The notes under the pieces were generated by a model. It saw nothing but the letters and a program-made list of their open reading frames with translations, ran no database searches and had not been told where the DNA came from. A program made the position numbers and the translations under genes. Positions 1-11,506 of a DNA stretch of 64,000 nucleotides are shown piece by piece. Each line of letters starts with the position of its first letter. The first letter of the stretch is position 1. Origin of the DNA: Deltaproteobacteria bacterium (GTDB lineage: Bacteria > Desulfobacterota > RBG-13-43-22); assembly GCA_016208255.1 (NCBI GenBank), contig JACQYK010000175.1:3944-67943 (forward strand). The letters are read 5' to 3'.

Positions 1-2
1 GC

Positions 3-287
3 GGACACCAGGTCCTGGCCGGGGTGGGTTATGAGGTGGACCGGGGGCTTCTGCCCCTCTTTTCCAGAAGGGGGAAGACCAAGCAGCTCTATCTGGGTGA
101 TTCCGATTTTTATCTGGAAAAACTGATGCAGGACGTTGAAAAATGGCCCGCACCCGAAAAATTCAGAGGAAAAGCCCTGGGTATTTTTGACATCCCCAGG
201 GAGAAACAGATACCCTACTGGCAGCCCTGGAGGGAACGCTGGGAAGCCATTGAGAAGAGGAAAAAAGAAAGAAAAAAGAAAAAATAA
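3..287 (+). CDS. C-terminal end of an unidentified protein entering from the left edge (Lys-rich tail)
   Basis: The frame is open from nt 3 (GHQVLAGVGYEVDRG...) to TAA at 285-287. ORF-track entry 24..287 is its tail. No family recognised. Confidence 0.4.
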   Translation, partial: GHQVLAGVGYEVDRGLLPLFSRRGKTKQLYLGDSDFYLEKLMQDVEKWPAPEKFRGKALGIFDIPREKQIPYWQPWRERWEAIEKRKKERKKKK

Positions 288-307
288 GGTTCAAGCGAAT
301 CGAAGAA

Positions 308-331
308 GCCGGGTCCTCTGGACCCGGCTTT
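308..331 (+). terminator. Candidate hairpin terminator
   Basis: GCCGGGTCC-tct-GGACCCGGC followed by TTT, 20 nt after the stop of the edge ORF. The T-tract is short. Confidence 0.45.
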
Positions 332-599
332 CCACCTCAATATCTGCTGATTATCCCTCCCAAGAAATTCGACGACCACAAATAGAAGCTATCCCCGTTT
401 GGGAAGAAAGGATGGAAATAAATAACAGAGGTTGACTTTAACCATTTGTTATGGTTAATATTATAAAAATTTGATTTTGGCTTTAATGATTCCGGCAACC
501 CATAACCGAAAGGCTGGTCCATGAAGTAGTTCGACAAGGCATTCTTATTAAAAAGAAGGGCCTGTCCTCCCATTTTCATGTTTTATCTGAAGGTTCTTA

Positions 600-3284
600 A
601 TGACTGAAAATGAATGGAAAACCAGAAAAGAGAGAATCGATAAAAAGCTAAAAGCCCTCAGTCCTGCCTGGAAAATCATCAAATATTTCAATGAACTGGA
701 TACTAAGGGCCTCAACGGATACGCTGTCGAAGAATTTCCTACCGCCAACGGTCCGGCCGATTACGCCCTTTTTGTGAAGGGGATGTGTCTTGGTATCATA
801 GAGGCAAAAAAGGTCGGCGTTGGTCCATACAATGTACTCGAACAGGCCAAGCGGTACGCCAGAGGGGTCTTCCAGGGTATCGGAAATTGGGACGGGTATC
901 GGGTTCCCTTTCTATACGCCACGAATGGAGAGGTGATCTGGCACATTGATGTCAGGGATGAGAAAAACCTATCCCGCCAAATATTCCATTTCCATACCGC
1001 CGAGGCCCTCAAAGAATTCCTGGAGAACGACGGCGCCAACCTATACGTTCTTCTGAGAGATACCCCCATCGACATCGAGGGGATACGACCATATCAGAAA
1101 AAGGCCATCGAGGCCATCGAAACGGCCATCAGCCAAGGCAAGCGGGCCATGCTCGTGGCCATGGCCACCGGAACGGGCAAGACCTTTCTCACCGTCTCTC
1201 AAATCTATCGTCTCCTCCAGGCCAAATGCGCCAGACGGGTTCTTTTTTTGGTCGATCGCCGGGCACTGGCAGCCCAGGCGGTTCGAGAGTTCGCTTCCTT
1301 CAATACCCCTGGAGGGCATAAGTTCGATCAGGAATATGAGGTCTACAGCCAGCGCTTCCGACGTGAAGATTTTGATGAAGACCAACCTTTCGATCCCAAG
1401 GTGCTGCCCAATGCCTATCTGACTGCTCCGCAGGCCTCCCATACCTTTGTCTACGTCTCCACCATCCAGCGGATGGCCATCAATCTCTTTGGGTTTGAAT
1501 CCGCTTTTTCTCAAAGCCGGAGTGATCCCGATTATGAAGACGAGGCGGATAAACTGGACATCCCCATTCATGCTTTTGATCTGATTATCGCCGATGAATG
1601 TCACCGCGGATACACGGCCAGGGATGATGCCGTCTGGCGAGGTGTTATGAATCATTTCGACGCCGTGAAAATCGGCCTAACGGCCACCCCGGCCCTCCAC
1701 ACTCTGTCTCTTTTCAATGAAGTAATCTACCGTTACTCAATGGAAGAGGCCGTGCTTGACGGCTGGCTGGTGGATTATGAGGCGGTAAAGATCAGGTCCG
1801 ACGTGCGTATGCAAGGGGCCTTCCTCAAAGAGGGTGAGCAGGTGGGTTTCATCGACACGGAGACGGGAAAGGAGACTTTCGACCATCTCGAGGATGAGCG
1901 ACAGTTTGGCACGGAAGAAATCGAGGTAAAAATTACTTCCCCGGACAGCAACCGCAAGATTATCAAAGAGCTTGCCCGATATGCTTTTGCTCACGAAAAG
2001 GAAAACGGCCGTTTCCCTAAAACCCTCATCTTTGCCGCCAACGACCTGCCCCACACCTCTCATGCCGACCAAATCGTTCGAATCTGCCGGCAGGAATTCG
2101 GTCAGGGTGACAGTTTTGTTCAGAAAATCACCGGAAGTCCCACGGTGGACAGACCCCTTCAGAAGATACGGGAGTTCAGGAACAGGCCGAATCCCAAAAT
2201 CGTGGTGACTGTTGATATGCTCTCCACCGGTGTCGATATTCCTGCTCTGGAATTCATCGTTTTCCTGCGCCCTGTCAAATCAAGGATCCTTTGGGTGCAG
2301 ATGCTCGGCCGGGGTACGAGAAAATGCGACCTCATCAATAAAGAGAAATTTGTCATCTTCGATTGTTTCGACGGCACATTGATTGAGTATTTCAAGAACA
2401 CTACCGATTTTGACGTCCAGGTATCCAGCCAAGAACCTCTGCCTATCGATCAGGTCATTGAAAACATCTATCAGAACATCGACCGGGACTACTATACCAA
2501 GGTCCTGGTTAAGCGGCTTCACCGCATTGACCGCACCATGAGCGGTCAGGCCCACGAGCAATTCAGAGCTTTCATCCCTGAGGGTGACCTCGGTAAATTT
2601 GCCAAAGAATTGCCGGAAAAGATCAAGAACGATTTTACCAATACTCTGGCCCTTCTTCGTCAGAAAGACTTTCAGGACCTCTTGGTCAATTATGAACGGG
2701 CTAAAAGGACCTTTGTTGTGGGATATGAGGTTGAGGATACCGTGTCATCGGAGGTCATGATCCGTCTCGGCTCCGACTATCAGAAACCGGAAGATTATCT
2801 GGAGGCCTTTGCCCGTTTCGTCAAAGAAAATCCGGAGCAGATCGAGGCCATCAAAATCCTCATGGAAAGGCCGAAACAGTGGAACGCCAAGGCGCTTACC
2901 GAGTTGAGGGCGAAATTAAATCTCAATAAATTTCCTGAGAAGGAGCTACAAAAGGCCCATCAACTGGTTTATAAAAAGGCCCTGGCCGACATCATCTCTA
3001 TGGTAAAACACGCCGCCAGGGAGGAAGAGCCGATTACCTCGGCCCAGGAGCGGGTTGACCGGGCCGTGGCCAAAGTTACAGCAGGGGTTCCCATGACCGA
3101 CGAACAACAAAAATGGCTGGAATATATTCGAAATCATCTTATTGAGAACTTGACCATCGACCTTAATGATTTTGACACCCTGCCTGTCTTTGAACGGCAT
3201 GGTGGACGTAACCGGGCCAATACGGTTTTTAATAATGAATTGGAAAGATGGATAAACGACATCAACTATGCGGTGGCCGCATAG
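600..3284 (+). CDS. hsdR: Type I restriction enzyme R subunit (HsdR)
   Basis: 894 aa. HsdR-type N-terminus (MTENEWKTRKERIDKKL), Walker A MATGTGKT, DEAH-type IIADECHRG and helicase motif VI QMLGRGTR. The C-terminal ~150 aa look like the EcoEI-type R C-terminal domain (from memory). It is the first gene of an R-M-S operon. Confidence 0.93.
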   Translation: MTENEWKTRKERIDKKLKALSPAWKIIKYFNELDTKGLNGYAVEEFPTANGPADYALFVKGMCLGIIEAKKVGVGPYNVLEQAKRYARGVFQGIGNWDGYRVPFLYATNGEVIWHIDVRDEKNLSRQIFHFHTAEALKEFLENDGANLYVLLRDTPIDIEGIRPYQKKAIEAIETAISQGKRAMLVAMATGTGKTFLTVSQIYRLLQAKCARRVLFLVDRRALAAQAVREFASFNTPGGHKFDQEYEVYSQRFRREDFDEDQPFDPKVLPNAYLTAPQASHTFVYVSTIQRMAINLFGFESAFSQSRSDPDYEDEADKLDIPIHAFDLIIADECHRGYTARDDAVWRGVMNHFDAVKIGLTATPALHTLSLFNEVIYRYSMEEAVLDGWLVDYEAVKIRSDVRMQGAFLKEGEQVGFIDTETGKETFDHLEDERQFGTEEIEVKITSPDSNRKIIKELARYAFAHEKENGRFPKTLIFAANDLPHTSHADQIVRICRQEFGQGDSFVQKITGSPTVDRPLQKIREFRNRPNPKIVVTVDMLSTGVDIPALEFIVFLRPVKSRILWVQMLGRGTRKCDLINKEKFVIFDCFDGTLIEYFKNTTDFDVQVSSQEPLPIDQVIENIYQNIDRDYYTKVLVKRLHRIDRTMSGQAHEQFRAFIPEGDLGKFAKELPEKIKNDFTNTLALLRQKDFQDLLVNYERAKRTFVVGYEVEDTVSSEVMIRLGSDYQKPEDYLEAFARFVKENPEQIEAIKILMERPKQWNAKALTELRAKLNLNKFPEKELQKAHQLVYKKALADIISMVKHAAREEEPITSAQERVDRAVAKVTAGVPMTDEQQKWLEYIRNHLIENLTIDLNDFDTLPVFERHGGRNRANTVFNNELERWINDINYAVAA

Positions 3285-3296
3285 AAAGGACCGGTC

Positions 3297-4712
3297 TTGA
3301 CGGATATTGTCAATAAACTCTGGGGATTTTGTCACACTCTACGGCATGACGGCGTGGATTACGGCGATTACATCGAACAGCTTACCTATCTGCTTTTTCT
3401 TAAAATGGCCGACGAAAAAGGGATCACCATCCCTAAGGGTTGTACCTGGGAGGCCTTGAAGAAAGAGTCCGGCCCGGCCCTGATCGATCTCTATTCGGAG
3501 ATACTGCGCAAATTGCGTGATGAAAAGGGCCTGCTCGGCGACATCTTTACCCAGTCAGTGCCCCGCTTTAATAATCCCGTAAATCTAAAACGTCTCATTA
3601 CCATGATCGATGAAGAAGAATGGTCGGCCCTTGATGTCGATGTCAAAGGGGCGGCCTTTGAAGGGCTATTGGAAAAAGCGGCCAGCGAAGGGAAAAAGGG
3701 CGCCGGGCAATACTTCGCCCCCAGGGTCCTGATCAAGTCCATTGTCCGGGTCATGAGGCCCGATCCCCGGACAAACGCGGAATTTACCATCTGCGATCCG
3801 GCCTGCGGCACCGGAGGCTTTCTGATGTGCGCCTATGAGTGGCTGATGGAGATCACCGGCGGGGCCATCGAACGGGATATTGCCAAACGGGTAAAGACCA
3901 AAACCTATTATGGACAGGAACTGGTGCCCCGCCCCAGACGTCTTTCCCTGATGAATCTCTTTCTCCACGGTCTGGAACCCCATATTTATTTGGGCGATGC
4001 CATCTATGAACCCTACCGGGGAAAACTGCATAGTTGCGTCCTGACCAATCCACCCTTCGGCACCAAGGGGGCCAATCAAGCCCCGGAGCGGGATGACTTT
4101 ACCATTGCCACCAGCAACAAACAGCTCAATTTCGTCCAGCACGTCATGAATATCCTCAAGGAAGGAGGCCGGGCGGCCATTGTCCTGCCTGACAACTGTC
4201 TCTTTGAAGACAAAGCGGCCGAGGTCTTTGAAATCCTTATGCAGGACTGCAACCTCCACACGATCCTCCGCCTGCCCAGAGGGACCTTCACCCCCTACAG
4301 CCCCGGCGTGAAAGCCAATGTCATCTTTTTCCAGAAAGGCATGAAAACCGAACAGGTCTGGATATTCGATGCCCGCTCCAATGTGCCGGGCATCACCAAG
4401 AAGGAACGCCCCCTAGGACCCGAACATTTTACCGAATTCGAGGCCGCCTACGGCAAAGACCCCAACGGGCAAAGCAAAAGAAAGGATACCGGCGAACAGG
4501 GCCGGTTCAGACGATTTCATATCAAAGACATCAAAGACCGCTCCTACAAGCTCGACATCACCTGGCTCAGAGACGAATCCCTCGAAGACGCCAATGACTT
4601 GCCCGAGCCGCAGGATTTAGCCGCTGAGGCGATTACGGAATTGGAAGCGGTGGTAGATAGTCTGAGGGATATTGTAGAGTTGCTGGAGAAGGAAGAAGGT
4701 GTGGAGGAGTGA
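3297..4712 (+). CDS. hsdM: Type I R-M N6-adenine DNA methyltransferase (HsdM)
   Basis: 471 aa with a TTG start 12 nt after hsdR. HsdM N-domain (LWGFCHTLRHDG...YLLFLKM), motif I DPACGTGGF and motif IV LTNPPFG. Confidence 0.95.
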   Translation: MTDIVNKLWGFCHTLRHDGVDYGDYIEQLTYLLFLKMADEKGITIPKGCTWEALKKESGPALIDLYSEILRKLRDEKGLLGDIFTQSVPRFNNPVNLKRLITMIDEEEWSALDVDVKGAAFEGLLEKAASEGKKGAGQYFAPRVLIKSIVRVMRPDPRTNAEFTICDPACGTGGFLMCAYEWLMEITGGAIERDIAKRVKTKTYYGQELVPRPRRLSLMNLFLHGLEPHIYLGDAIYEPYRGKLHSCVLTNPPFGTKGANQAPERDDFTIATSNKQLNFVQHVMNILKEGGRAAIVLPDNCLFEDKAAEVFEILMQDCNLHTILRLPRGTFTPYSPGVKANVIFFQKGMKTEQVWIFDARSNVPGITKKERPLGPEHFTEFEAAYGKDPNGQSKRKDTGEQGRFRRFHIKDIKDRSYKLDITWLRDESLEDANDLPEPQDLAAEAITELEAVVDSLRDIVELLEKEEGVEE

Positions 4713-6142
4713 GAGAAGAGTTGCCACGAGGATGGAGTATGGCAGAATTAGAGAGCGTTGCCGAACTTGTCAGCGGGGCTGGTTTTCCTTTGAACCTCCA
4801 AAGCCAGACAGGATTTACTTTCCCGTTTTTTAAAGTTGGAAATTTGAAGGATGTAGCTTCAGGAAAACCTTTAGTCTCTTCCGAACACACGATTTCTGAA
4901 AGAGCCGCCTACTCGCTCCGGGCTAGGATTATCCCAGAGGAAGCCACTGTGTTTGCAAAAATCGGCATGGCTATAAGCTTAAACCGAAGACGTCTGATTG
5001 GAAGGCCTGCTTGTATTGATAACAACATGATGGCTGCTATACCAAACGAGGCTATACATCCCAGTTATCTCTTACGCTTTCTTGAGACGGTTGATTTTAT
5101 GCCTTTAACTCAAGCTACAACAGTTCCGAGTCTTCGGAAGGGCAATATAGCAAAGATTCTGGTTCCACTGGCACCTTTGGAGGAACAGCGCCGTATCGTG
5201 GTAAAGCTGGAAAAACTTTTGGAGAAAGTCGAATCCAGCCGGACACGTCTTGAAAAGATTCCCGTCGTCCTCAAACGCTTTCGCCAATCCGTCCTCGCCG
5301 CCGCCTGCTCTGGCCGTCTCACTGCCGATTGGAGGGAGCAATCAAAACAATCAATCGAACATATCATCAGAGATAACAATACTGCCCTGCCTGAAATTCC
5401 CGAAAGTTGGCGATGGGTAAAACTTCCGGATACAGGGGAAATGAGTCGTGGAAAGTCGCGGCATAGACCAAGAAATGAGCCTTCATTATTTGATGGACAA
5501 TACCCTTTCATCCAAACTGGTGATATTGCCCAGTCAGGGGGTAGAATTACCTCCCATAAGCAAACTTATAATGAGGCAGGTCTTGCCCAGAGCCGTCTTT
5601 GGCCAGCTAACACCATTTGCATCACGATCGCTGCGAACATTGCTGAGTCGGCCATTTTGACCTATCCAGCATGTTTTCCCGACAGCATTGTCGGGATCAT
5701 TGCAAATTCTGTGGTCTGTTTGGCAGAGTATGTTGAATTTTTCATCCGGGTAGCGAAAACAGATCTATCGACATTTGCCCCTGCGACGGCCCAGAAGAAC
5801 ATCAATATTGCCATTTTAAATGAGGTGGCTGTCCCTCTCCCCCCTCTAATAGAACAACATGAAATCGTCCGCCGTGTGGAAGAACTCTTTGCCCTTGCCG
5901 ACCAGATCGAAGCCCGTTACCAGAAAGCAAAAGCCCATGTGGACAAACTCACCCAATCCATCCTGGCCAAAGCCTTCCGTGGCGAACTCGTCCCCCAAGA
6001 CCCAAACGATACACCTGCGATAATTTTGTTGAGTGAAATTGATATTGGCAAGAAATACTTTAAAAACACCCTTCTCAAAAGATCAAAGATGAGAGAAAAA
6101 CATAAAATAAAAACTAGAGAGGGAACACATGGAGGCGAATGA
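4709..6142 (+). CDS. hsdS: Type I R-M specificity subunit (HsdS)
   Basis: 477 aa with a GTG start overlapping the hsdM stop (GTGA). Two variable target-recognition regions are separated by conserved repeats (LAPLEEQRRIVVKLEKLL and LPPLIEQHEIVRRVEELFALADQIE). Confidence 0.9.
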   Translation: MREELPRGWSMAELESVAELVSGAGFPLNLQSQTGFTFPFFKVGNLKDVASGKPLVSSEHTISERAAYSLRARIIPEEATVFAKIGMAISLNRRRLIGRPACIDNNMMAAIPNEAIHPSYLLRFLETVDFMPLTQATTVPSLRKGNIAKILVPLAPLEEQRRIVVKLEKLLEKVESSRTRLEKIPVVLKRFRQSVLAAACSGRLTADWREQSKQSIEHIIRDNNTALPEIPESWRWVKLPDTGEMSRGKSRHRPRNEPSLFDGQYPFIQTGDIAQSGGRITSHKQTYNEAGLAQSRLWPANTICITIAANIAESAILTYPACFPDSIVGIIANSVVCLAEYVEFFIRVAKTDLSTFAPATAQKNINIAILNEVAVPLPPLIEQHEIVRRVEELFALADQIEARYQKAKAHVDKLTQSILAKAFRGELVPQDPNDTPAIILLSEIDIGKKYFKNTLLKRSKMREKHKIKTREGTHGGE

Positions 6143-7016
6143 TAATCTTGAAATTAAATTCAGGCTGGAGGGTCCGATTTTCCAAACTGGTATTCCTTTA
6201 TTAGAGACAATCGTAGCCTTACAAGAATTTCATTTTATTATTGATAAAGCATACTCTGCGAATTTTAATATCGCAAAATTAACAAAGAAAGAGAGACAAC
6301 ATTATAGCATTATTGCACAGAATTTTCAGAAAGGATCATTTGAGGCCGATTTGATGTTCGTCATCGCATCTGGCACTCAATTGCTTCTCCCAAGCATTCA
6401 AGCATTTGGCCCGAAAGAACTGTGGGATCTCGTTAAAGCATCGTTCTCCTTTTTGAAAGCAATTATTACCGCAAGGAATTCAGAGACCGAACCCACTGTC
6501 AATATTGAAGGACACGGCAACCATGTCTATATTATGAACGATAATGTGATTAAAATAAGCCAACATGTTTATAATGCTGCAGACTTGTCAGAACCGCATT
6601 ATAAGAAGCTTACTTCTGTTATTGAAAAAAATAAAATTGATTCTATCACTGGAATGGATTCGTCTGGAGAAGGGATTGAACTGACCGAGAACGAGAAAAA
6701 ACTATTTAACCCTAAGGTTACGGTGGAAAAAGAAGTTCTTAAAGTTCGATGCAGTGTCTTTCGATTCGACAAAGAAGCAAACATCGGTAAATTGCGGGTT
6801 TCTCCGGGAGAACCAGTTCCACCGGGCGAATATAATTTCAAACCTATTGCATCGGGAGATTATAGAAAATTTATAGTTGCGATGATGCATTCCTCGGTAA
6901 CATTAAACATATTGAAAGAAATTGAAGTGCATACCTCAGGCTTAAAACGTATCTCATCTTTACATGTGGTCTCATTTGAAGATTTTCAGCAAGAATCCCT
7001 ATTTTCATTGACATGA
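6129..7016 (+). CDS. Hypothetical protein, 295 aa, coupled to hsdS
   Basis: The ATG at 6129 lies inside the last 14 nt of hsdS, with a purine-rich AGAGAGGG upstream. It is a long uninterrupted ORF that is visibly AT-rich relative to hsdR/hsdM. I recognise no motif. Confidence 0.6.
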   Translation: MEANDNLEIKFRLEGPIFQTGIPLLETIVALQEFHFIIDKAYSANFNIAKLTKKERQHYSIIAQNFQKGSFEADLMFVIASGTQLLLPSIQAFGPKELWDLVKASFSFLKAIITARNSETEPTVNIEGHGNHVYIMNDNVIKISQHVYNAADLSEPHYKKLTSVIEKNKIDSITGMDSSGEGIELTENEKKLFNPKVTVEKEVLKVRCSVFRFDKEANIGKLRVSPGEPVPPGEYNFKPIASGDYRKFIVAMMHSSVTLNILKEIEVHTSGLKRISSLHVVSFEDFQQESLFSLT

Positions 7017-7070
7017 TTATTAAAGGCGGACTATAGGCAGCCCAGAATTTCAGCCGAAAGGAAAAAGGGA

Positions 7071-7099
7071 TAGATATAGTATACTCCGTGTGCTATAAT
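7071..7099 (+). promoter_or_regulatory. Candidate sigma70 promoter/operator of the abiE operon
   Basis: TATAAT at 7094-7099 with a weak -35 (TAGATA, 7071-7076) at 17-nt spacing. The perfect palindrome AGTATACT lies between them. AbiEi proteins are known autorepressors. Confidence 0.35.
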
Positions 7100-7137
7100 T
7101 CCATCCAGATTGGAACTACTGCGCAAAGGATGTACCA

Positions 7138-7947
7138 ATGAAGTCCGTTTCGGGGTTAGGAAAAGAGTCGAGAAAACAATTAACGAAGGTACTACGCGGA
7201 ACGACCGGAACGATATCGGTCGCCCAAGCTGCGAGTATTCTTAATCTCCCTTCGATCAAAGCCGCAAAACTTCTTTGGGGATGGAATGAACAGGGTTGGG
7301 TCTCCCGCGTTATGCGAGGAGTATACGTTCCTGTTCCACTCAATGCTGAATCCCCTGACGTGTCCCTCGAAGACCCTTGGATTATTGCCGAAAAATTATT
7401 CTCACCTTGTTATATCGGAGGGTGGAGCGCCGCTGAACATTGGGGTCTTACCGAGCAAATTTTTCGGACAGTAGTTGTTTTGACAACTCGGAAACCAAGA
7501 AACCGCAGTCCTAAAATCAAGGGAACCGATTTTTTGTTGCGAACCATATCGCCTAAGGCTATGTTCGGCCTCAACCCGGTCTGGAGAGGACAGGTTAAGG
7601 TAGCTGTATCCGATCCGGCACGAACGATTGTTGATATGTTGGATAACCCTCAGCTCGGGGGAGGTATGCGTACAGTTGTCGATATCCTTCGGAACTACCT
7701 GAAGTCTGAGACCGAGGATTCTGCGCGTCTGATTGGATACGCCAAACGATTGGGCAATAGCGCTGTCTTTAAGCGCCTTGGTTTTCTCCTGGAATCTGTC
7801 GCACCGGAAGAGGCGGAAGCCATTAAAACCTGCCTTCTCAACATGAAAACAGGAAAAGTCAAGTTTGACCCAGACCTTCAATCCGAAAGATTGGTCACCC
7901 GATGGAAGTTGTGGGTTCCAAAGAATTGGAAGCAGGCTAAGAAATAG
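7138..7947 (+). CDS. abiEi: AbiEi-family antitoxin/transcriptional regulator (type IV TA)
   Basis: 269 aa. N-terminal wHTH-like segment (ISVAQAASILNLPSIKAAKLLWGWNEQGWVSRVMRGVY) and GGWSAAEHWGLTEQ, typical of the AbiEi_4 type. It sits directly upstream of a DUF1814 NTase. Confidence 0.85.
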   Translation: MKSVSGLGKESRKQLTKVLRGTTGTISVAQAASILNLPSIKAAKLLWGWNEQGWVSRVMRGVYVPVPLNAESPDVSLEDPWIIAEKLFSPCYIGGWSAAEHWGLTEQIFRTVVVLTTRKPRNRSPKIKGTDFLLRTISPKAMFGLNPVWRGQVKVAVSDPARTIVDMLDNPQLGGGMRTVVDILRNYLKSETEDSARLIGYAKRLGNSAVFKRLGFLLESVAPEEAEAIKTCLLNMKTGKVKFDPDLQSERLVTRWKLWVPKNWKQAKK

Positions 7948-7959
7948 AGGATATTTTCG

Positions 7960-9390
7960 TTGATCAGCCGTCAAGAAATAATGGATTTTTCGAGAGAGTT
8001 CGGACTTGCGCCGAATGTGATCGAAAAGGACTATGCCCTCGGATGGGTGCTTGCCGGAATTGCAAATACCGAAGGACTTGGTACTGTCTGGGTTTTTAAA
8101 GGCGGGACCGCTCTCAAGAAATGTTTCTTTGAAACCTATCGATTCTCGGAGGACCTGGATTTTACAGTCACTGAGGAAAAGTATCTGGACCCAGACTCTC
8201 TGACCGAGATATTTCGCAAGATTGGTGATTGGGTATACGAACAGGCAGGCCTTGAGATTCCTAGAGATACAATTCGCTTTGAAAGCTATACTACCCCACG
8301 GGGAAAAACCTCTGTTCAGGGACGCATCGGCTATCGAGGGCCCCTGAAGCCGGGCGGGGATCTGCCTCGTATAAGATTTGACCTAACCAAAGATGAATTG
8401 GTAGTTTTAAATCCGGAGATGAGAGAAGTACACCATCCTCATTCCGATTCACCGACTGATGGTATCCACGTTTTATCCTATTGTTTCGAAGAAGTTTTTG
8501 CCGAGAAGATTCGTGCCTTGGCTGAAAGGGAAAGGCCCCGCGACCTTTATGACGTGATCCATCTCTTCAGACATTCCAATGAAGCGGTGGATAGACCACT
8601 TTTGGTGAAAACGTTGGAGAAGAAGTGCGCATTTAAAGGAATACCTCTGCCTTCCTTTGACACCCTGGCCACCAGTCCTGAGTATAGTGAACTTAAATCG
8701 GAATGGCAAAACATGTTGGCCCATCAATTGCCGGTTTTGCCTCCCTTTGAACAATTTTGGAACGAGCTTCCCGACATGTTTAACTGGCTGTATGGGAAGG
8801 TAGAGAAGGTGGTTCAACCGGTGATTCCGTCCATTGGAATTCCCGGTGATGATCGATGGCGAGCGCCCACTATGGCAACGGCCTGGCACTCCAAAGTGCC
8901 GATTGAAGTCATTCGATATGCCGGGGCGAATCGTCTTTGTGTTGACTTGCAGTATCAAGGAAACAAGAGACTTATTGAGCCCTATTCTTTGCGTCGTTCC
9001 CGCGAAGGGAATTTGCTCCTGTACGCAGCAAAGCATATATCGGGAGAACCAAGAGCATACAGAGTGGATCGTATTGAAGGAGCCGCCGTAACCAATAAAC
9101 CCTTTACTCCTCGTTATACTATTGAATTCTCAGAATCTGGTTCCATTTCCGCACCACCCATTAGCCGAAATCCTGAAATTTATCGCCCAACTAAGACGAG
9201 AAGCCCCTTGACAATTGGTTTTGGAACTAAGCGGCTTGCTTCAGGGTATGGCCCAAAATATATTTTCGAATGTCCAATTTGCGAAAAGAAGTTTACCCAT
9301 AGATCATACGATGCATCACTGCGTCCTCATAAAGATAAGGACGGATATCCATGTGGAGGTCGGCTTGGGATCTACATTGATACGAAATGA
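7960..9390 (+). CDS. abiEii: AbiEii/DUF1814 nucleotidyltransferase toxin with a C-terminal WYL-like domain and Zn-ribbon
   Basis: 476 aa. N-terminus IEKDYALGWVL...FKGGTALKK...RFSEDLDF is the AbiEii hallmark. aa ~313-385 are WYL-like (RLIEPYSLRRSREGNLLLYAAKHISGEPRAYRVDRIEG). aa 434-470 read CPIC...H...CGG. The start may be TTG at 7960 or ATG at 7981. Confidence 0.85.
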   Translation: MISRQEIMDFSREFGLAPNVIEKDYALGWVLAGIANTEGLGTVWVFKGGTALKKCFFETYRFSEDLDFTVTEEKYLDPDSLTEIFRKIGDWVYEQAGLEIPRDTIRFESYTTPRGKTSVQGRIGYRGPLKPGGDLPRIRFDLTKDELVVLNPEMREVHHPHSDSPTDGIHVLSYCFEEVFAEKIRALAERERPRDLYDVIHLFRHSNEAVDRPLLVKTLEKKCAFKGIPLPSFDTLATSPEYSELKSEWQNMLAHQLPVLPPFEQFWNELPDMFNWLYGKVEKVVQPVIPSIGIPGDDRWRAPTMATAWHSKVPIEVIRYAGANRLCVDLQYQGNKRLIEPYSLRRSREGNLLLYAAKHISGEPRAYRVDRIEGAAVTNKPFTPRYTIEFSESGSISAPPISRNPEIYRPTKTRSPLTIGFGTKRLASGYGPKYIFECPICEKKFTHRSYDASLRPHKDKDGYPCGGRLGIYIDTK

Positions 9391-9402
9391 CGAGGAAGAT
9401 AA

Positions 9403-10062
9403 ATGAAACGGGTCAAAGATATTCCAAAAGATGAAAGGCCGAGGGAAAAGCTGGCCAAGAAAGGACCGCAAGCGTTATCCGATGTGGAACTGATTGCTAT
9501 TCTCCTTGGCCGGGGCATAGAAGGGCATGATGTGATGTCCGTGGCAAATCAGGTCTTGATCGCCATTGATTCCAACGGGGGAACGCCCGATTGTGCGGCG
9601 CTTCAGAATATCGCCGGCATGGGACCGGCCAAGGCTACCCTGATTGCCGCTGCCCTTGAGTTTGCCCGAAGAAGGATCAAGCCGGAAGGATTTAAAATAG
9701 CTTTTCCATCTGACGTGCTCCCTTTGATTCAGCATTATGCCGACAGGAAGCAGGAACATTTCCTCTGCGTTTCTCTAAACGGTTCCAATGAAGTCATAGC
9801 CGTGAGGGTCATCTCTGTTGGGCTGGTCAATAAGACCCATGTTCACCCCCGCGAGGTTTTTGCCGATGCCATAACGGACCGGGCCAGCGCGATCATCGTC
9901 GCTCACAACCATCCTTCGGGAAATGTGGAACCAGGCAAGGAAGACCTTGAAATCACCAAACAGCTTAAATCAGCAGGGGAGATCCTGGGCATCAAACTCC
10001 TCGATCATATTATTTTCAATAGGACGAGTTATTACAGCCTTCTTGAAAAGAACGAAATATGA
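9403..10062 (+). CDS. radC: RadC-like JAB/JAMM domain protein
   Basis: 219 aa. HhH-like N-terminus (LSDVELIAILLGRG) and JAMM motif AHNHPSGNVEPGKED. It starts 12 nt after abiEii. Confidence 0.9.
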   Translation: MKRVKDIPKDERPREKLAKKGPQALSDVELIAILLGRGIEGHDVMSVANQVLIAIDSNGGTPDCAALQNIAGMGPAKATLIAAALEFARRRIKPEGFKIAFPSDVLPLIQHYADRKQEHFLCVSLNGSNEVIAVRVISVGLVNKTHVHPREVFADAITDRASAIIVAHNHPSGNVEPGKEDLEITKQLKSAGEILGIKLLDHIIFNRTSYYSLLEKNEI

Positions 10063-10221: not shown

Positions 10222-11506
10222 TCACTTGACTGCCATGATCCGCGCCCAGCAGGGATTGACAACCGGGATGCGGACTTTTCCGCCGCGGATCGGAAACCGG
10301 TCGCCCTGGTTCAGCAGATCAATCAACTGCTTCTTGTCCGGCTCCGGAACCGGTAAATCCAGGGGAACCGGTTTGTCCGCGGCGTTAACGGCCACAATGA
10401 CACATTCTTCCGGCGTCTGCCGGGCAAAGGCCATTTGCTCGGACTTGACTAAGAGGGGGCGATAAAGGCCATAGCGCAGGGCCTGGGAGTGATGCCGGAT
10501 TTGAGCCAGGCGGTTTAGGACACCGGGCAAATCCGGGTGCGGGCTGTTCTGAGAGATCTGGGAATAATCGAGACAGGGTCGAAGGGCCCGGTCGCTTCGG
10601 CTGCTTCTTTTCCCGGCGATTCCCCATTCACTTCCATAGTAAATGGAAGGGATACCCGGCATGGTAAACAACAGGCTGTAAAGCGGGTAGAGATGGGCCG
10701 GGTTTTTGAGCTGGCTGGCCACGCGATGGACATCATGGTTGTCGGCGAATGAATAGAGGAGGAGATCCCGATAGATCCCCTTTTCTCCAAACTGCCGATT
10801 CAGGGTGTGGGCCAGTTCAAAATAATTCCGGTCGGCGTGGCTTGAGTATAAACCCTTGTAACCGACATAGTTGGTGACCGAATCCAGGGTTTCCGGGTTG
10901 ACCCATTTCCGGTAATCGCCGTGGATCACTTCGCCCATCAACCAGAAATCGGCCCGGCGGGTCTTACAAAAAGACCTTAAGTCTTTTAAAAAAGAAAGAT
11001 CGAGACTGTCGGCTACATCCAGTCTCAGTCCATCAATATTAAATTCCCGAATCCATGATTCGATGGCCTGAAAAAGATGGGCCTTAATCGAGGGATTAAG
11101 TAAATTGAGCTTAACCAGGCTGCAATGGCCGTTCCAGTTATCGTAGGTGAAGGGATCATTATAGGGGCTGCGCTTGCTGAAGTCGAGCCCCTGAAACCAG
11201 TCGAATTCCCTTTTGATGGAGACGGGTGCTCAGGTCTGTCAAAGTTTTATTGCTTCCCAGCCGGCGGTCCACCTGAAAATAATCGGCTGTGTCATAGCCA
11301 TGGGAAGTGGATTCAAATAATGGTCCCAGATAAAGGGCATTCACTCCCAATTGCTTTAAATGGTCTATCCAGGGATACAATTGTTCCAGCCGAGGTTCGG
11401 GTGGGGAGCAGAAGTCATTCTCAAAAGGAGCGCCACAGAACCCGAACGGATAAATGTGATAAAAAAACGCATCATATGCCCAATGCGCCAAGAAAAACCT
11501 CCTCAA
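10222..11506 (-). pseudogene. GH13 alpha-amylase-family glycosidase, disrupted by an internal deletion and frameshift
   Basis: The N-terminal fragment 11159..11506 (HWAYDAFFYHIYPFGFCG...NALYLGPLFES..HGYDTADYF) and the C-terminal part (...NIDGLRLDVADSL..., FADNHDVHR) are in different frames. The expected ~30 aa after HQKGIRL (VLDGVFNH...) are missing near 11200. Confidence 0.8.

Follow-up and report, generated by a model that had tools for sequence, protein, structure and literature searches.

A two-domain protein of an uncharacterised family is encoded on a cassette with the 3′ end of hsdS

Introduction

What is the role of a gene that starts inside the end of hsdS, and does its product belong to the type I restriction-modification (R-M) enzyme encoded ahead of it? 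This question is raised by a 64,000-nucleotide stretch of the Deltaproteobacteria bacterium contig JACQYK010000175.1 (assembly GCA_016208255.1, a metagenome-assembled genome; positions 3,944 to 67,943), referred to below as the window, in which a 295-amino-acid open reading frame (ORF; positions 6129–7016, + strand, ATG start, locus tag HY787_19170) follows hsdR, hsdM and hsdS. A preliminary description of the locus, made without database searches, put this ORF forward as a candidate fourth component of the R-M system. We find that the product of the ORF is a cytoplasmic protein with two domains, a member of an uncharacterised family, and that the gene is inherited in one block with the 3′ end of hsdS. 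With moderate confidence, we interpret the protein as a putative autonomous accessory anti-phage factor and not as a restriction-enzyme subunit.

The ORF is a real gene that overlaps hsdS

The ORF is a real gene, more than a chance reading frame. A phmmer search of 1.84 billion cluster representatives returned 219 clusters at E ≤ 1e-3, 143 of them at E ≤ 1e-10, and these homologues are nearly all 280–300 amino acids long and collinear with the ORF from end to end; nine relatives came from a word-indexed search of 5.8 billion proteins. The ratio of nonsynonymous to synonymous substitution rates (dN/dS) is 0.12 for the single unsaturated pair of close homologues and 0.08 for a second pair, in which dS is near saturation (2.5). 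Across phyla, the family occurs patchily and in single copy. An alignment of 89 sequences has few invariant positions: G15, R56, S70, W99, G220 and F237 are conserved in at least 90% of them and D39, Y42, G69, L109, F193, Y235 and E264 in at least 85%. The ORF used as a single query had no match in Pfam, NCBIfam, PADLOC or PDB sequences, and the 89-sequence family profile had none in the sequence libraries either. The sole library match of the ORF is PHROG 33593 (E 2.6e-24, residues 1–255 aligned to profile positions 7–272 of 302), which is annotated as function unknown.

The ORF is the terminal gene of an hsdRMS operon that consists of hsdR (600–3284, + strand; Pfam ResIII, HSDR_N and a C-terminal domain of the EcoEI type, EcoEI_R_C), hsdM (3297–4712, + strand; Pfam N6_Mtase and HsdM_N) and hsdS (4709–6142, + strand; 477 amino acids with two target-recognition domains, matched by Pfam Methylase_S in two stretches). 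The preliminary description placed the start codon at 6129 within the last 14 nucleotides of hsdS, and the coordinates agree: the hsdS stop codon TGA (6140–6142) falls within the ORF, and the overlap is 14 nucleotides. A purine-rich element resembling a Shine-Dalgarno (SD) sequence, GAGAGGGA, is located ahead of the ORF at 6117–6124, inside hsdS. The two genes are not separated by any sigma-70-like site, and the ORF is not followed by a terminator-like one, the nearest promoter-like site on its 3′ side being TAGATA-17-TATAAT at 7071–7099, ahead of abiEi. It is hsdR and hsdM, further up in the operon, that must provide the transcription of the ORF. The overlap, the SD-like site and the lack of a promoter-like site in between thus support the proposed co-transcription with hsdS, and translational coupling is probable. 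Among the relatives that follow an hsdS gene, the spacing ranges from a 4-nucleotide overlap to a 63-nucleotide gap.

The GC content of the ORF is 37.2% (34% at third codon positions), which is within the 35–38% estimated by eye in the preliminary description, against 49.8% for the window. The low GC content extends into hsdS, the last 123 nucleotides (41 codons) of which have a GC content of 30.9% compared to 48% for the remainder of the gene. The AT-rich block thus begins about 110 nucleotides ahead of the ORF, within hsdS.

The ORF and the 3′ end of hsdS form a cassette

The boundary of this block was examined in the close clade of the family, which comprises five loci (the window and the loci L005, L001, L006 and L135) with homologues that are 61–69% identical. 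At all five loci, the ORF directly upstream ends in an HsdS C-terminus of the form ..AFRGELVPQDPND(E/T)PA.., followed by a Lys/Arg-rich tail. All five also carry a G-rich SD sequence, and the homologue starts 15–40 nucleotides after the hsdS-tail ORF, or, in the window, with the 14-nucleotide overlap. When the alignment of this clade was used as a probe, metagenomes yielded only three loci, and GTDB genomes and IMG/VR yielded none.

In the window, the AT-rich block starts right after the stretch coding for FRGELVPQDPND. This hsdS 3′ ‘anchor’ (5942–6010, + strand), which encodes ..LTQSILAKAFRGELVPQDPNDTPA, a peptide that also closes the ORF ahead of each close-clade homologue, matches L001 with 78% identity over 68 nucleotides and L006 with 87% identity over 60 nucleotides in blastn comparisons. 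The 60–70 nucleotides that code for the FRGELVPQDPND region are the sole upstream DNA that can be aligned between diverged cassettes (78–87%). The anchor is followed by a Lys/Arg-rich C-terminal extension of HsdS (6011–6142, + strand) that has a GC content of 31%, groups with the cassette by composition and carries GAGAGGGA.

Two of the close-clade loci display the limits of the block directly. L005 and L001 share 89.8% DNA identity over 1065 nucleotides, from 54 codons before the end of hsdS to the exact stop codon of the ORF, and their contigs are unrelated outside of it. In L001, the HsdS tail is part of a chimeric 263-amino-acid ORF (9182–9973), in which a non-HsdS body that is weakly DprA/SLOG-like (Pfam DNA_processg_A, E 3e-3) is joined to a 54-amino-acid HsdS tail 81% identical to that of the genuine HsdS of L005. 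The chimera is thus a relic left by recombination at the 3′ end of an hsdS gene. The block shared by L005 and L001, taken together with the grafting of the tail onto a gene other than hsdS, identifies a discrete cassette, and its exact limits show that the unit of inheritance is ‘hsdS 3′ end + ORF’. The anchor at 5942–6010 is the probable site of homologous recombination in the window. Neither flanking repeats nor a second hsdS anchor, as expected of a shufflon- or integron-like site, were found in the window beyond chance.

Whatever the function of the ORF, the bounded block shows that the 3′ end of hsdS can serve as a recombination anchor, by means of which accessory genes move from one R-M locus to another and may even become attached to genes of an unrelated kind.

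Linkage to hsdS across the family

Same-strand homologues are found directly 3′ of hsdS at seven of about 35 independent loci: the window, L005, L006, L135, the L001 remnant, L068 and L160. At the remaining loci, about four fifths of those examined, hsdS is not in the vicinity. In the Betaproteobacteria metagenome-assembled genome (MAG) L068, the homologue shares 26% identity with the protein of the window, and its start codon overlaps the hsdS stop codon in the sequence ATGA; a Schlafen-AlbA_2/HATPase_c_4 gene comes after it. L160 has the gene order of the window, hsdR(EcoEI_R_C)-hsdM-hsdS-homologue; its homologue is 26–28% identical, the Hsd proteins show 23–30% identity to those of the window, and all four proteins are thus similarly diverged. 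In a neighbour-joining tree of 30 members with known context, the hsdS-linked proteins fall into three separate deep lineages that are only 24–26% identical to each other.

Homologues are therefore recurrently linked to hsdS, a linkage that the preliminary description had proposed to look for with hsdS or other defence genes, and many of the remaining members abut defence genes. The proposal of a fourth component of the R-M locus was not borne out: hsdS is lacking at most loci, the neighbours vary, and no constant co-occurrence with hsdS, hsdM or hsdR, as would be expected of an obligate fourth subunit, was found across the family. Furthermore, blastp comparisons among 141 neighbours revealed no recurrent neighbour family. 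Because such a family is absent and the members linked to hsdS do not group together but belong to three lineages, we favour an autonomous role.

Alternatively, by analogy with known accessory genes, the ORF product could work together with the type I R-M enzyme as its functional partner. As a guardian in the manner of PrrC or PARIS, it would stay silent on the intact enzyme and cause growth arrest once a phage inhibits restriction; as a modulator, it would tune restriction or modification upon entry of the operon into a new host. The concept of RM guardians is well established (PMC12707154), tight translational coupling would fix the stoichiometry with HsdS, and the conserved gene order and similar divergence of L160 are compatible with long co-inheritance. 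Set against these points and the seven independent loci are (i) the distance of most family members from any hsdS, (ii) the persistence of the L001 cassette under purifying selection without an hsdS body, and (iii) the absence of similarity to PrrC, RloC and PARIS proteins. We consider such a partnership unlikely, and we do not rate it lower because three independent lineages share the position.

Predicted structure and sequence motifs

The AlphaFold2 (AF2) model of the whole ORF product, obtained with the 89-sequence alignment, has a predicted local distance difference test score (pLDDT) of 91 and a predicted TM-score (pTM) of 0.84. It consists of an N-terminal alpha/beta domain (residues 1–198, positions 6129–6722, + strand; pLDDT 92 and pTM 0.89 when modelled alone) and a C-terminal oligonucleotide/oligosaccharide-binding (OB) fold (residues 204–287, positions 6738–6989, + strand). 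The two halves differ in charge, the OB half being basic with an isoelectric point of 8.1 and the N-terminal half having one of 5.7. The Foldseek comparison proposed in the preliminary description was carried out on this model and returned only OB-fold matches from the PDB, leaving the N-domain without a PDB relative.

The OB-fold assignment rests on AF2 secondary structure, in which five strands are arranged as b1-b2-b3-helix-b4-b5 with the helix after b3, and pLDDT exceeds 90 over residues 200–285. The Foldseek matches comprise SilF/CusF, Mycoplasma SSB, Rim1, the cold-shock domains of Lin28/YBX1 and the anticodon-binding OB-fold of LysRS, with probabilities up to 1.0 and TM-scores normalised to the target of 0.5–0.76 at E values of about 1e-2. 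The b1-b2 hairpin carries the family motif F-x-[FY]-[DN]-K-x4-G-[KR]-L, and Y235, F237 and E264 are also conserved in this domain. Judging from the conserved K215, K221, Y235 and F237, single-stranded nucleic acid or something similar is the most likely ligand of the OB-fold.

The best-conserved residues of the N-domain are G15, D39, Y42, R56, G69-S70, W99, L109 and F193. Foldseek found nothing significant for it in the PDB (best E 0.14, TM-score below 0.25); protein kinases, the top matches, were dismissed as noise (TM-score about 0.16). In sequence, the N-domain is a distant, sub-threshold relative of DUF7946 (PF25678), a model that is covered almost completely by the first ~180 residues of family members. 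One of these, a Javan169 prophage homologue, aligns with residues 25–195 to DUF7946 positions 16–180 of 183 (E 1.3e-5), at 25.8 bits against a threshold of 27. Seven of the 89 members match weakly, all below the curated threshold, and the window protein does not match. DUF7946 has no known function and is not mentioned in the literature searched. The N-domain may have an effector or an oligomerisation function.

The sequence was also searched for motifs of known activities. Walker A ([AG]xxxxGK[ST]), HNH and CxxC patterns are absent, Pfam detects no helix-turn-helix (HTH), and no PD-(D/E)xK or HNH nuclease match was found in Pfam, PDB or Foldseek; a loose D...ExK string (residues 170–191) falls on a helix. 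The maximum hydropathy over 19 residues is 1.48, which indicates that there is no transmembrane segment. These results uphold the preliminary description as far as transmembrane segments, P-loop, HNH and PD-(D/E)xK are concerned. Its statement that the ORF has no HEPN-type Rx4-6H string needs correction, as an R-x4-H string occurs once, as RISSLH at residues 274–279 in the last OB strand (b5). We do not count it as a HEPN motif because it is not conserved in the family and is located in a beta-strand. As to PrrC and RloC, which the ORF was said not to resemble, there is indeed no Walker A motif and no AAA/ABC match in Pfam, and no family of PADLOC-DB v2 matches at E ≤ 1, including the models for PD-T4, PD-T7, PD-lambda, PDC and HEC.

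Relatives in phages

A comparison of the model to predicted viral structures returned three uncharacterised phage proteins (E 1.7e-7 to 9e-6, TM-scores 0.33–0.41), which match over their full length: A0A8S5T657, Q6NE06 of Leptospira phage LE1 and A0A8S5QA00, which is annotated as DUF6575. Viral collections contain almost no members of the family itself, which is carried by four of 50,697 phage records and was not found in IMG/VR with the probes used. The family gene occupies an accessory slot between the late regulator and terS in two temperate phages and is located near the end of a Mu-like element.

These observations, together with the match to PHROG 33593, could be taken to mean that the ORF is a phage-derived anti-defence or counter-defence protein captured by chromosomes, for example an inhibitor of neighbouring systems. 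We regard this origin as very improbable, considering how rare the family is in viral collections, that solved anti-defence proteins in the PDB are unlike it, and that the gene is chromosomal, co-oriented and co-transcribed with the host hsdRMS, which such an inhibitor would disable.

Two of the phage records, PQ283533.1 (H3, an Enterococcus phage) and PQ554527.1 (H4, Acinetobacter phage D2SVT), have the same match statistics (26.3% identity, E 2e-8, identical query range) and near-equal genome lengths; they may represent essentially one phage, or one of the host labels may be wrong.

Genomic contexts of the family

Besides hsdS, family genes adjoin a variety of defence and toxin-antitoxin (TA) modules. 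In a Geobacteraceae MAG (L008, 10001–13660; also L009), a 41%-identical homologue is located 40 nucleotides upstream of gajA-gajB on the same strand. Other direct neighbours are AbiEi_2 (L064), TIR/SEFIR (L036), STAND-like NTPases (L026, L118), putAbiC (L070), an AAA_15/21 ATPase (L135), DuOB (L099), MazEF and BrnA (L014/L139), DUF3800 (L006) and SocA_Panacea (L160, L161). The L001 island holds an MNT-HEPN pair, which is, along with a helicase-methylase-KAP NTPase trio that resembles the Hma arrangement of Payne et al., a few genes from a 68%-identical homologue. In the clade with 48–53% identity, a REP-associated tyrosine transposase (IS200/Y1-like) precedes the homologue (L004, 9501–10019; L140, 368–1006), and in L004 the end of the transposase overlaps the start of the homologue by 19 nucleotides.

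In two members, the family module is fused to another domain. P0160 (L136 10001–11617, Anaerolineales, 538 amino acids) has an N-terminal VWA domain, and P0037 (438 amino acids, on a short contig) has an N-terminal response-regulator receiver (REC) domain. The C-terminal placement of the module fits that of an output or effector module.

The REC fusion looks like a response regulator with the family module as its output, which would also suit a nucleic-acid-binding protein outside defence, such as a regulator or a factor with housekeeping duties in mobile elements, that resides in insertion-tolerant regions. Housekeeping genes as neighbours at many GTDB loci, the lack of a clear defence island at L161 and L136 and the absence of a toxic or enzymatic signature from the sequence all agree with this. 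A regulator would, however, be expected neither to spread in a patchy, single-copy manner nor to be transferred on an AT-rich cassette, both of which are typical of conflict genes; furthermore, the family has no HTH and no conserved cognate neighbour, and it adjoins at least ten different defence/TA modules as well as prophage accessory slots. A non-defence role is thus, in our judgement, doubtful.

Several observations on individual contexts are recorded here. A gap of 800 nucleotides precedes the homologue of L008, so that a Gabija operon of three genes may begin with it. A Gad1-like anti-Gabija protein was considered for this locus and rejected, since neither the full-length model nor the N-domain has a significant match in the PDB and the gene is chromosomal and co-oriented with gajAB; the structure of the Gad1 complex has been solved. 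A neighbour of about 343 amino acids, present at several loci, was dismissed as a conserved partner after an all-against-all blastp comparison showed it to represent unrelated proteins (AbiEi_2, putAbiC and uncharacterised proteins). The L001 island (positions 1–9101) opens with adjacent genes for a PLD-SNF2 helicase, an MmeI-type methylase and a KAP NTPase, after which comes an AAA_15/21 ATPase. An AbiEi-type antitoxin gene is found directly after the family gene both in the window (AbiEi_1) and in Leptospira sp. L064 (687–2715, AbiEi_2); as these lineages are about 26% identical, the adjacency could be due to chance or represent a second recurrent association.

A model for the ORF and its weighing

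Combining these findings, our best reading of the family is that of rare ‘passenger’ genes of defence islands and prophages, a mobile single-gene unit that repeatedly hitch-hikes on hsdS. We propose the following model for the window. The ORF arrived on an AT-rich cassette together with the hsdS 3′ tail, probably by recombination onto a conserved hsdS end. Being joined to that end, it shares the transcript of the hsdRMS operon, and its translation is probably coupled to that of hsdS. The encoded protein, in which an N-domain that is DUF7946-like and of unknown activity is linked to an OB-fold that may bind single-stranded nucleic acid or something similar, would act independently, in an abortive-infection-like manner or by exclusion, as a second layer beside the type I R-M system.

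A number of observations weigh against an autonomous anti-phage factor. Proteins, metals and sugars are further ligands of OB-folds, and it is a metal chaperone that matches best in the PDB. The conserved residues fit no known catalytic signature, nor does any motif point to an activity. Placement after hsdS in three lineages could mean a functional tie to type I R-M. A degenerate pattern (FDFNK..GK) retrieved 18 true loci from GTDB genomes and none from IMG/VR, and stretches of 8 kb around the 18 GTDB members of this motif-selected subfamily contain mostly housekeeping genes and few PADLOC matches. The islands are therefore small, and the defence enrichment is a qualitative one. Finally, the family is absent from PADLOC v2, one of the main catalogues of defence systems, including its 145 ‘guilt-by-embedding’ candidates (10.1101/2024.01.29.577857); it is missing there because it is rare and located at operon ends, not embedded.

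A more far-reaching proposal merges the cassette with the guardian concept. In it, the cassette would be a portable guardian module that recombines onto any compatible hsdS and installs a stoichiometrically coupled OB-fold protein; this protein would monitor the enzyme, or single-stranded DNA or anti-restriction mimics, and upon subversion trigger abortive infection via the DUF7946-like effector fold, with the relatives beside Gabija, AbiE, TIR and STAND serving as add-on guards. We consider this rather improbable. Should the ORF product prove to be an anti-phage factor, the defence repertoire would gain a family whose N-terminal fold has not been seen before.

Surroundings in the window

The ORF is followed by an AbiE pair with its own promoter-like site (7071–7099). 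abiEi (7138–7947) is succeeded by abiEii (7960–9390), which encodes a 476-amino-acid toxin with a C-terminal WYL domain (Pfam WYL, residues 317–376); this AbiEii-WYL fusion is unusual and matches the PADLOC model PDLC02317 from end to end. A RadC-like JAB/MPN gene (9403–10062) closes the defence cluster. The possibility that L005 is the same locus as the window, with AbiE inserted later in the latter, was rejected, as the MPN-like gene of L005 and the RadC of the window show no similarity. Next to the cluster is an alpha-amylase/neopullulanase fragment (10222–10941, minus strand, 239 amino acids), which matches only the C-terminal part of such enzymes and is probably a truncated gene at the insertion boundary of an island of about 10 kb. 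Beyond it, the island gives way to MarR, Opp transporter and fatty-acid genes. The window contains no tRNA gene.

Comparison with known systems

At the level of domains, parallels exist for the OB-fold. It shares the b1-b2-b3-alpha-b4-b5 order with cold-shock domains, SSB, Rim1, CusF and SilF, although the ORF belongs to no OB family of Pfam and the structural matches have E values of about 1e-2. In the b1-b2 hairpin, F-x-F-[DN]-K-x4-G-K-L is reminiscent of the cold-shock domain with its W-F-N-x-x-K-G-F-G-F arrangement. PHROG 33593 and the phage proteins are of no known function, and the TM-scores of the phage proteins are only 0.33–0.41. DUF6575, the annotation of one of these proteins, is listed among the domains of the PD-series Escherichia coli defence systems (PMC9519451), which gives a lead to a possible PD relationship; no PADLOC PD model matches the ORF.

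At the level of genomic organisation, the ORF resembles the anticodon nuclease PrrC, which is encoded in the type IC locus EcoprrI, and RloC: each is an extra gene that a type I R-M operon carries internally or at its border and that is co-expressed with hsd, and the ORF, too, is plausibly a second line of defence (PMC12707154). PrrC and RloC, however, combine an ABC/Rad50-like NTPase head with a C-terminal tRNase, whereas the ORF has a different fold and no Walker A motif. Moreover, it is located after hsdS and not between hsd genes, and most of its relatives are not linked to R-M.

Uncharacterised genes nested in multi-gene defence operons, or joined to them, often prove to be independent systems (10.1101/2024.01.29.577857). 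The HEC and PDC candidates embedded in R-M, BREX, DISARM and Hma operons (Payne et al. 2024) follow the same genomic logic as the ORF, although the ORF is terminal after hsdS and thus not strictly embedded, has no PADLOC v2 model match and shares no domains with them. The same logic applies to TgvAB of Vibrio cholerae VPI-2 (PMC11411939), with which the ORF shares no domain, and to the rlo genes. The ORF is thus best described as an accessory gene of a known kind, attached to an R-M operon, whose product has an N-domain with a fold absent among solved structures.

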